In this document: positions 62,181-62,410 of the stretch, piece after piece
Numbering within the stretch: position 1 is the stretch's first letter
Layout: each line of letters starts with the position of its first letter
Assembly (NCBI RefSeq): GCF_003334815.1
Contig: NZ_QOWO01000002.1
Length of the DNA stretch: 64,000 nucleotides
Source of the DNA: Escherichia coli
Lineage (GTDB): Bacteria; Pseudomonadota; Gammaproteobacteria; Enterobacterales; Enterobacteriaceae
Strand: one strand, 5' to 3'
The notes under the pieces: model-generated
What the model was told of the DNA's origin: nothing
Database searches by the model: none
Seen by the model: only the letters and a program-made list of their open reading frames with translations
Program-made: the position numbers and the translations under genes

Positions 62181-62208
62181 ATCCTTTTCAGCCGCGTATT
62201 GGCTTGTT

Positions 62209-62224
62209 TGCAAAGCGGATGCCA
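62209..62224 (-). promoter_or_regulatory. sigma54 (-24/-12) promoter of the rut operon
   Basis: Minus-strand TGGCATCCGCTTTGCA has GG and GC at the canonical -24/-12 spacing, about 30 nt upstream of the rutA start. Confidence 0.8.
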
Positions 62225-62288
62225 GTTTTTAAAAAGTTAATGTTATTAATCTGTTAACATTACGTTATCTAAAATATCTGGTAAAAAG

Positions 62289-62304
62289 TGGACTAAACGG
62301 TCAA
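62289..62304. promoter_or_regulatory. Candidate RutR operator in the rutA-rutR intergenic region
   Basis: TTGACCGTTTAGTCCA (minus-strand reading) approximates the palindromic consensus TTGACCAnnTGGTCAA. Confidence 0.6.
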
Positions 62305-62410
62305 AACAGTTGCACATAAAACATGCATCTGTGCGCGATGAGAGTGCAGAAGGTCGAGGCCGGGCGGGGGTTTTGCTATCCTGTTGCCAATCTACAAGAG
62401 GGGAGAGCGC

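Follow-up and report, generated by a model that had tools for sequence, protein, structure and literature searches.

How is transcription of the rutABCDEFG operon controlled from the spacer that it shares with the divergent rutR gene, and at which codon does rutA itself begin? Both questions were addressed in a 64,000-nucleotide stretch of Escherichia coli DNA (contig NZ_QOWO01000002.1; hereafter the window), in which positions 62181-62410 are the divergent rutR/rutA control region as bounded by a 382-residue rutA model. On the minus strand rutA is followed by rutB. Of 5426 complete E. coli genomes, 5422 contain the 801 bases around the control region (90-100% identity), which lie between rutR and rutA, and the rutA leader is 100% identical to its counterpart in K-12 MG1655. 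For comparison, 80 rutA loci were collected from one-genome-per-species Enterobacterales contigs and anchored on the methionine codon of the conserved MKIGVF sequence. The reading preferred here, with a probability of about 0.9, is that of a divergent rutR-rutABCDEFG control region in which sigma54 and NtrC activate the operon, RutR dampens that activation, and rutA is translated from the start of a 363-residue protein. The sigma54 promoter, the NtrC dependence and the RutR operator are already known from ChIP, SELEX, EMSA and genetic work published between 2006 and 2015. Features are collected in Table 1. As a side observation on the layout of the locus, the distance from fabA to rutA in the window is approximately 780 bp shorter than that calculated from published MG1655 coordinates, a difference that would fit an IS-sized insertion in MG1655 that is missing here; the window would then come from a strain other than MG1655, for all the identity of their control regions.

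Table 1. Features of the rutR-rutA region, in window coordinates.
Feature	Position	Strand	Basis or remark
rutA coding sequence, best-supported start, 363 aa, MKIGVF...	61032..62123	-	PGAP WP_001340618.1 and four other strains; TIGR03612; coding periodicity
rutA Shine-Dalgarno sequence, GAGAGG	62130..62135	-	6 nt before ATG 62123
Conserved rutA 5'-leader element	62153..62200	-	alignments, covariation, covariance model; includes the "382-aa" ATG
ATG, K-12 reference rutA start (382 aa)	62178..62180	-	NC_000913.3 b1012; functional start probably not here
Predicted transcription start, +1 at about 62198	62197..62199	-	standard sigma54 geometry: 12 nt downstream of the C (62210) of the -12 GC
sigma54 (-24/-12) core promoter of rutABCDEFG, TGGCATCCGCTTTGCA	62209..62224 (reads 62224..62209)	-	sequence; 80/80 loci; ChIP-seq OS10; gSELEX
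AT-rich spacer, 64 bp, about 21% G+C	62225..62288	+	sequence read directly; between sigma54 core and RutR box
RutR operator (RutR box), TTGACCGTTTAGTCCA	62289..62304 (reads 62304..62289)	.	consensus match; published site; EMSA; O^c mutant; about 73/80 loci
Proximal NtrC-like site, TGCATGTTTTATGTGCA, centre -121	62311..62327	-	3 mismatches; conserved position
Distal NtrC-like site, TGCACTCTCATCGCGCA, centre -142	62332..62348	-	3 mismatches to TGCACC-N5-GGTGCA; conserved position; NtrC ChIP-seq peak at promoter
rutR, TetR-family repressor, 212 aa	62411..63049	+	annotation and sequence; ATG at 62411; divergent from rutA

Activator and repressor sites in the shared spacer

The sigma54 core carries GG at 62223-62222 and GC at 62211-62210 with 10 nt between them, the canonical GG-N10-GC arrangement, and differs from a TGGCAC-N5-TTGCA-like consensus by one mismatch. 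The pattern TGGCAY-N5-TTGCW was matched once in the 64 kb, by this core, with 0.27 matches expected and at least one match in 26 of 100 shuffles, a count that is only suggestive when taken alone. Across the comparative set, a core with no more than two mismatches was present upstream of rutA in all 80 loci, mostly 96-106 nt before the MKIGVF ATG. Furthermore, a published sigma54 ChIP-seq survey assigned site OS10, CTGGCATCCGCTTTGCA, on the minus strand, to rutA (Bonocora et al., PMC4591121), and genomic SELEX with the RpoN holoenzyme gave peaks in the rutA/rutR spacer at 71-73% intensity (Shimada et al., PMC8743547). Neither the sigma54 motif nor the RutR motif described below could be demonstrated from this single sequence; both are considered real because of their conservation and the published experiments. 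A preliminary description of this DNA had read a sigma54 promoter at 62209-62224 with exact -24 GG and -12 GC spacing and had taken NtrC/sigma54 control of pyrimidine catabolism as established. The first statement was confirmed by the coordinates, the 10-nt gap, the 80 loci and the ChIP-seq site, and the second agrees with the published sigma54 ChIP-seq, RpoN genomic SELEX and NtrC ChIP-seq results.

Two further sigma54-like strings were noted in the window. One, TGGCAACAGGATAGCA (62374-62389, minus strand), lies in the rutR 5' region, has two mismatches with AGCA instead of TTGCA, and is kept in few loci; it is probably a chance match. The other, CCGGCATGAACAATGCG (56616-56632, plus strand), corresponds to the published "intergenic antisense" sigma54 ChIP-seq site OA02 and is located just past the rutG 3' end, oriented back towards the rut operon.

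A sigma54 promoter needs enhancer sites. Two NtrC-like 17-mers (62348..62332 and 62327..62311), which the preliminary description had overlooked and which are as readable as the elements it listed, lie 21 bp apart and so on the same helical face. The distal site is centred at -141 to -143 in Enterobacteriaceae loci and at -150 to -152 in Erwiniaceae and others; the proximal site falls at -120 to -122, or at -129 to -131 in other families. Together with the RutR box, these sites stand at fixed distances from the sigma54 core in most of the 80 loci. In Erwiniaceae, Yersiniaceae and relatives the three elements are found at about -151, -130 and -107, indicating that the whole upstream module is displaced by approximately 9-10 bp, one helical turn, with its internal geometry kept. 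NtrC-like 17-mers are not enriched in the window (20 matches, 37 expected), and with a count that is not significant by itself, it is positional conservation and ChIP that support these putative sites. In NtrC ChIP-seq, the highest peak genome-wide, 94-fold, was reported at ycdMLKJIHG, the old name of rutABCDEFG (Brown et al., PMC4066584), and NtrC boxes are also drawn in published promoter schemes of the rut operon.

The RutR box was evaluated with published criteria, namely a match to the 16-bp consensus TTGACCAnnTGGTCAA in which positions 4 and 13 have to be A and T, respectively (PMC2475637). It has three mismatches (11/14 match), with both key positions intact. At this threshold of three or fewer mismatches the window holds 6 matches with 3.0 expected, so that the sequence by itself does not reach significance. 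Read on the plus strand, 62289-62304 gives TGGACTAAACGGTCAA, the 11/14 site identified as the rutA target of RutR in vivo and in vitro by ChIP-chip and EMSA (Shimada et al. 2008, PMC2475637). RutR has a KD of 8.6 nM for the rutA-rutR fragment, from which uracil releases it (PMC2952853), and four substitutions in the box, an operator-constitutive (O^c) change, abolish uracil-sensitive autoregulation of rutR (PMC4325133). The centre of the box is at -98.5 relative to the rutA +1; 6 bp separate the box from the proximal NtrC site, and rutR transcription starts upstream of it. A RutR-like box occurs approximately 80-90 bp upstream of the sigma54 core in about 73 of the 80 loci. Position, published operator and conservation thus uphold the earlier placement of a RutR site here, while its description as near-palindromic was generous, given that the half-sites agree at only about half of their positions; in the literature the rutA site is called semi-palindromic.

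A second RutR operator, at carAB P1 (TTGACCATTTGGTCCA), follows the same 16-bp consensus, has a comparable affinity (KD 9.5 nM, compared with 8.6 nM) and is likewise released by uracil, but matches 13/14 positions rather than the 11/14 of the rut box. Its action also differs, in that the carAB site, at -184.5, has a positive effect through anti-repression while the rut box acts negatively on both divergent units. Elsewhere in the window, a RutR-consensus box, TTGACCACACGGTCCA (5294-5309, plus strand), inside fabA is a published intragenic ChIP-chip target of RutR without known regulatory effect. A RutR-like box with two mismatches and positions 4 and 13 intact, TTGACCATTTTGTCCA (34598-34613, plus strand), was noted within gfcE, a polysaccharide export gene; the 20 RutR targets published so far do not include it.

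The divergent sigma70 promoter of rutR has been placed upstream of the RutR box, with its -35 and -10 elements within the AT-rich spacer (PMC4325133); a consensus scan of the spacer for this promoter gave no strong match at the threshold used. A candidate IHF site at 62244-62256, with one mismatch, was dropped, being a single weak match against a high background (69 matches in the window, 52 expected).

In the proposed model, transcription of the rut operon would start near 62198 from the sigma54 promoter at 62224..62209, which would stay inactive until phosphorylated NtrC acted from the tandem sites at -142 and -121 under nitrogen limitation. RutR would bind one box at -98.5, which the divergent rutR transcript includes in its leader and which is 6 bp away from the proximal NtrC site. 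That single box would serve both the autoregulation of rutR, which has been shown in the literature, and a dampening of rutA activation. The dampening would probably operate by hindering the assembly of the NtrC oligomer or the looping between enhancer and promoter, as the geometry suggests, since a TetR-type dimer 6 bp from the proximal NtrC site would be well placed to disturb either; uracil would free RutR from the operator. The resulting mRNA would carry a leader of about 75 nt and be translated from ATG 62123 behind the GAGAGG Shine-Dalgarno sequence, with ATG 62180 probably falling only incidentally within a conserved RNA element of the leader. Of these steps, published work has demonstrated sigma54 and NtrC occupancy, RutR binding, its release by uracil, and the dependence of rutR autoregulation on the box. 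In exponentially growing cells a rutR deletion on its own fails to derepress rutA (PMC10891134), which fits an obligatory NtrC activation step. One paper mentions "activation" of rutABCDEFG by RutR (PMC2952853), contrary to a dampening role.

The arrangement resembles that of glnAp2, glnK, astC and ddpX, promoters of the E. coli Ntr regulon, in its GG-N10-GC core, its AT-rich bendable spacer, its tandem NtrC sites located over 100 bp upstream and sharing a helical face, and the binding of NtrC and sigma54 in vivo. It differs from them in that a TetR-family repressor site is inserted between enhancer and core and the spacer is shared with a divergent sigma70 promoter. Furthermore, the rutA leader is longer, at about 75 nt compared with 34-62 nt for glnK, ddpX and astC, and it alone contains a conserved element.

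Position of the rutA start codon

The K-12 reference NC_000913.3 annotates rutA (b1012, 1072863..1074011, equivalent to window positions 61032-62180) as 382 residues, and the 382-residue start given in the preliminary description is the same as this existing annotation. That description had placed the promoter about 30 nt upstream of rutA and had taken the promoter elements to define the rutA 5' end and so to support a start at 62180. The distance is right for the 382-residue start, at 29 nt from the end of the core, but becomes 86 nt for the better-supported start at 62123. The support claimed for 62180 did not hold, since 62180 and 62123 are both downstream of the predicted +1 (about 62198) and the promoter therefore cannot discriminate between them.

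The comparative evidence places the start of rutA, with high confidence, at ATG 62123, 57 bases downstream of 62180, giving a protein of 363 residues. A Shine-Dalgarno-like sequence precedes this codon in 80/80 loci, with a spacer of 6-7 nt in 73, and the sequence ATGAA is invariant in all 80. Over codons 2-20 after 62123, column identity by codon position in the 80 loci was 0.93/0.98/0.66, while in the 19 triplets upstream it was 0.46/0.46/0.46, without periodicity. An in-frame stop was found within these 19 triplets in 36 of the 80 loci, and only 12 combined an open frame with a start codon at -57; thus, across the 80 loci, the extension did not behave as conserved coding sequence with respect to open frame, start codon or periodicity. 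Within E. coli itself, fifteen complete genomes carry a TGA at -21. Protein models agree: position 1 of TIGR03612, the NCBIfam equivalog model for RutA, aligns to residue 20 of the 382-residue form, and PGAP annotates 363 residues in every non-reference genome inspected (five strains).

The alternative is that the K-12 annotation is correct, at least in E. coli, and that translation begins at ATG 62180, 18 nt into the mRNA, adding an N-terminal extension of 19 residues. This annotation is carried by the reference genome, the 57 nt are open in frame in mainstream E. coli alleles, and ATG or GTG is kept at the position in most Enterobacteriaceae; in addition, the 5WAN crystal structure was made with the 382-residue form, while 6SGG and 6SGL were made with 363 and 364 residues. 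An open frame in mainstream E. coli is, however, expected for so short and little-diverged a stretch. In most E. coli strains, which have kept this frame open, some initiation at 62180 may occur. Against the longer form stand, besides the stops, the lack of codon periodicity and the curated model and PGAP calls that both begin at residue 20, a GGA only 1 nt from ATG 62180, which is poor Shine-Dalgarno spacing, and the behaviour of the surrounding block of sequence. In many genera this block is not in the rutA reading frame, its distance to the rutA ATG varying by non-multiples of 3. The triplet aligned with ATG 62180 reads GTG, TTG, CTG, AAG, CCG, CAG, GAG, CGG, TCG or TAG in other genera, with non-start triplets in Erwiniaceae (TAG in one locus). 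The varying triplet and the out-of-frame spacing indicate that the block is not a coding start, and translation from 62180 is, on all the evidence, regarded as quite unlikely.

The K-12 rutA model is thus very probably 19 codons too long, which touches expression constructs and the presumed 5' UTR. An overlong model also shifts promoter-gene distances in regulon databases, as in the "18 nt" of the sigma54 ChIP-seq table, and one crystal structure bore the extra residues.

A conserved element in the rutA leader

When alignments were anchored on the sigma54 core, a conserved block, GGA.ATGCAGGATGCAGCGCCACG, emerged approximately 19-45 nt into the transcript and 29-35 nt after the -12 GC, at a distance fixed to the promoter and not to the rutA ATG. 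In an alignment of 44 leader sequences (A1), GCAGGA(N)GC was invariant as GC-GGA-GC and lay in the loop of a covarying helix. The helix comprises 7 bp, the 5' arm ACGCGGC (62197..62191) pairing with the 3' arm GCCCCGT (62166..62160), and the arms enclose a loop of about 25 nt that holds the invariant GCAGGATGC (62178..62170) and, further upstream, a GGA (62184..62182). Among the 44 sequences 85% of helix cells were paired, whereas no slid control exceeded 60%. In four pairs both partners have changed (G-C to A-U; C-G to U.G to U-A), and one internal mismatch shifts by one position between families. None of 500 shuffles reached the observed helix score, for a helix that was picked by eye from the same, mutually related sequences as were scored. 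An inner GCA-GGA-UGC mini-hairpin was rejected as a helix, since it shows no covariation and its A-U pair is broken in 14 of the 44 sequences; the motif is taken as single-stranded. Folding of the E. coli leader was not more favourable than that of its shuffles (z = +1.39), so the leader is not thermodynamically unusual, and RNAalifold applied to the raw leader alignment returned nothing.

A covariance model built for the element (R1) had its sole window match at 62153-62200, with 50 bits, and recovered held-out loci at the same leader position. The element was present in about 65 of the 80 Enterobacterales rutA loci. No match was obtained in the short-leader lineages (E. hormaechei group, Buttiauxella, Yersinia). 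In these the sigma54 core is only 56-70 nt before the ATG, as seen in three loci of the Enterobacter hormaechei group and three of Yersinia, and likewise in four loci in all from Buttiauxella and one Enterobacter sp. The element is therefore accessory, and the short-leader lineages, as natural deletion variants, could serve as comparators. No Rfam family matched the leader (only noise, E = 8.7), and the element was absent from the K-12 glnK, ddpX and astC leaders and from the glnH, gltI and potF promoter regions. Further downstream, the Shine-Dalgarno sequence may pair with a CU-rich tract, the probability of being unpaired being clearly lower in E. coli (0.12 compared with 0.40), with a weak trend alone across the loci as a whole (0.36 compared with 0.41; 50 of 76 loci). 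On the opposite strand, an antisense sigma54 site within the block (TGGCGCTGCATCCTGCA, plus strand) was considered and rejected, its GG-GC spacing being one nucleotide too long.

Possible roles of the leader element

As a tentative proposal, the first 45 nt or so of the rutA mRNA may form a conserved, rutA-specific regulatory RNA element that binds CsrA or another RNA-binding factor and controls the stability or translation of rut mRNA. Read in this way, the helix, with its one tolerated mismatch, would begin 1-3 nt from the 5' end, and the loop would display CAGGA(N)G together with a second GGA. The element thus resembles a CsrA-type GGA site, a putative assignment offered as a hypothesis and not as a finding. 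CsrA sites are typically GGA motifs shown in loops, the CsrB repeat being CAGGA(U/A/C)G, and 5'-proximal CsrA sites stabilise flhDC mRNA (PMC7652899). The rutA core GCAGGA(N)GC contains the CsrB repeat sequence exactly, with the same variable position, and, as in the CsrA sites of CsrB and flhDC, the motif sits near the mRNA 5' end in a loop that a short helix closes, with a second GGA just upstream.

There are also differences. The rutA Shine-Dalgarno sequence (GAGAGG) is without GGA, there is no site over it, and the GGAs are only about 9 nt apart, so that a second CsrA site spaced for dimer bridging, which usually overlies the Shine-Dalgarno sequence, was not found in the rutA leader. The enclosing loop of about 25 nt is unlike a hexaloop, and chance would supply 0.76 copies of the bare 10-mer in 64 kb. 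No link between CsrA and rutA was found in the literature or in CLIP data, and the CsrA CLIP-seq peaks of the Potts 2017 supplements include none in rutA, a gene expected to be silent without nitrogen limitation. In the same CLIP-seq data, peak_110 maps within the rutR coding sequence (window approximately 62697-62873, plus strand), an observation that places CsrA in contact with rutR mRNA.

If the regulatory-RNA reading is true, pyrimidine catabolism would, on top of its regulation by NtrC and RutR, respond to carbon status at the post-transcriptional level, and the "382-aa" start of K-12 would be an annotation artefact created by the element. A functional element could, furthermore, help explain why removal of RutR alone leaves the operon off. 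The element was not found described in the databases or literature reached and is one small possible novelty of the region.

The block at +19 to +45 might instead be a DNA operator, at which a transcription factor would act as a roadblock downstream of the sigma54 promoter. Its constant spacing of 29-35 nt to the -12 GC of the promoter core would suit such a site, and the inverted-repeat half-sites of a dimeric protein can covary as well. This reading is nevertheless improbable, as the arms are 25-28 nt apart with variable spacing, the invariant core is not palindromic, and the G.U intermediates appear on the sense strand, where the other strand would have C.A. We know of no factor whose motif is recognisable in the block.

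That the block is a translated upstream open reading frame (MQDAAPR...), regulating rutA by translational coupling or attenuation, is scarcely credible: the Enterobacteriaceae block does vary at every third base in a wobble-like manner, and the frame ends at or overlaps the rutA ATG in several genera, but its "start" triplet is TAG, CCG, AAG, CAG, CGG, TCG, GAG or CTG in many loci, its length and frame are not conserved, and the every-third-base variation falls at helix positions (q7, q4 and q1, two covarying pairs and the tolerated mismatch).

A natural disruption of the leader was also observed. In strain KFu015 (NZ_CP147130.1), a river-water isolate, an IS1B copy is located inside the rutA leader element, at the equivalent of approximately 62171-62178 and with a target duplication of about 8 bp. 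The insertion lies between the sigma54 promoter and the rutA start and should uncouple rutA from NtrC/sigma54 control.
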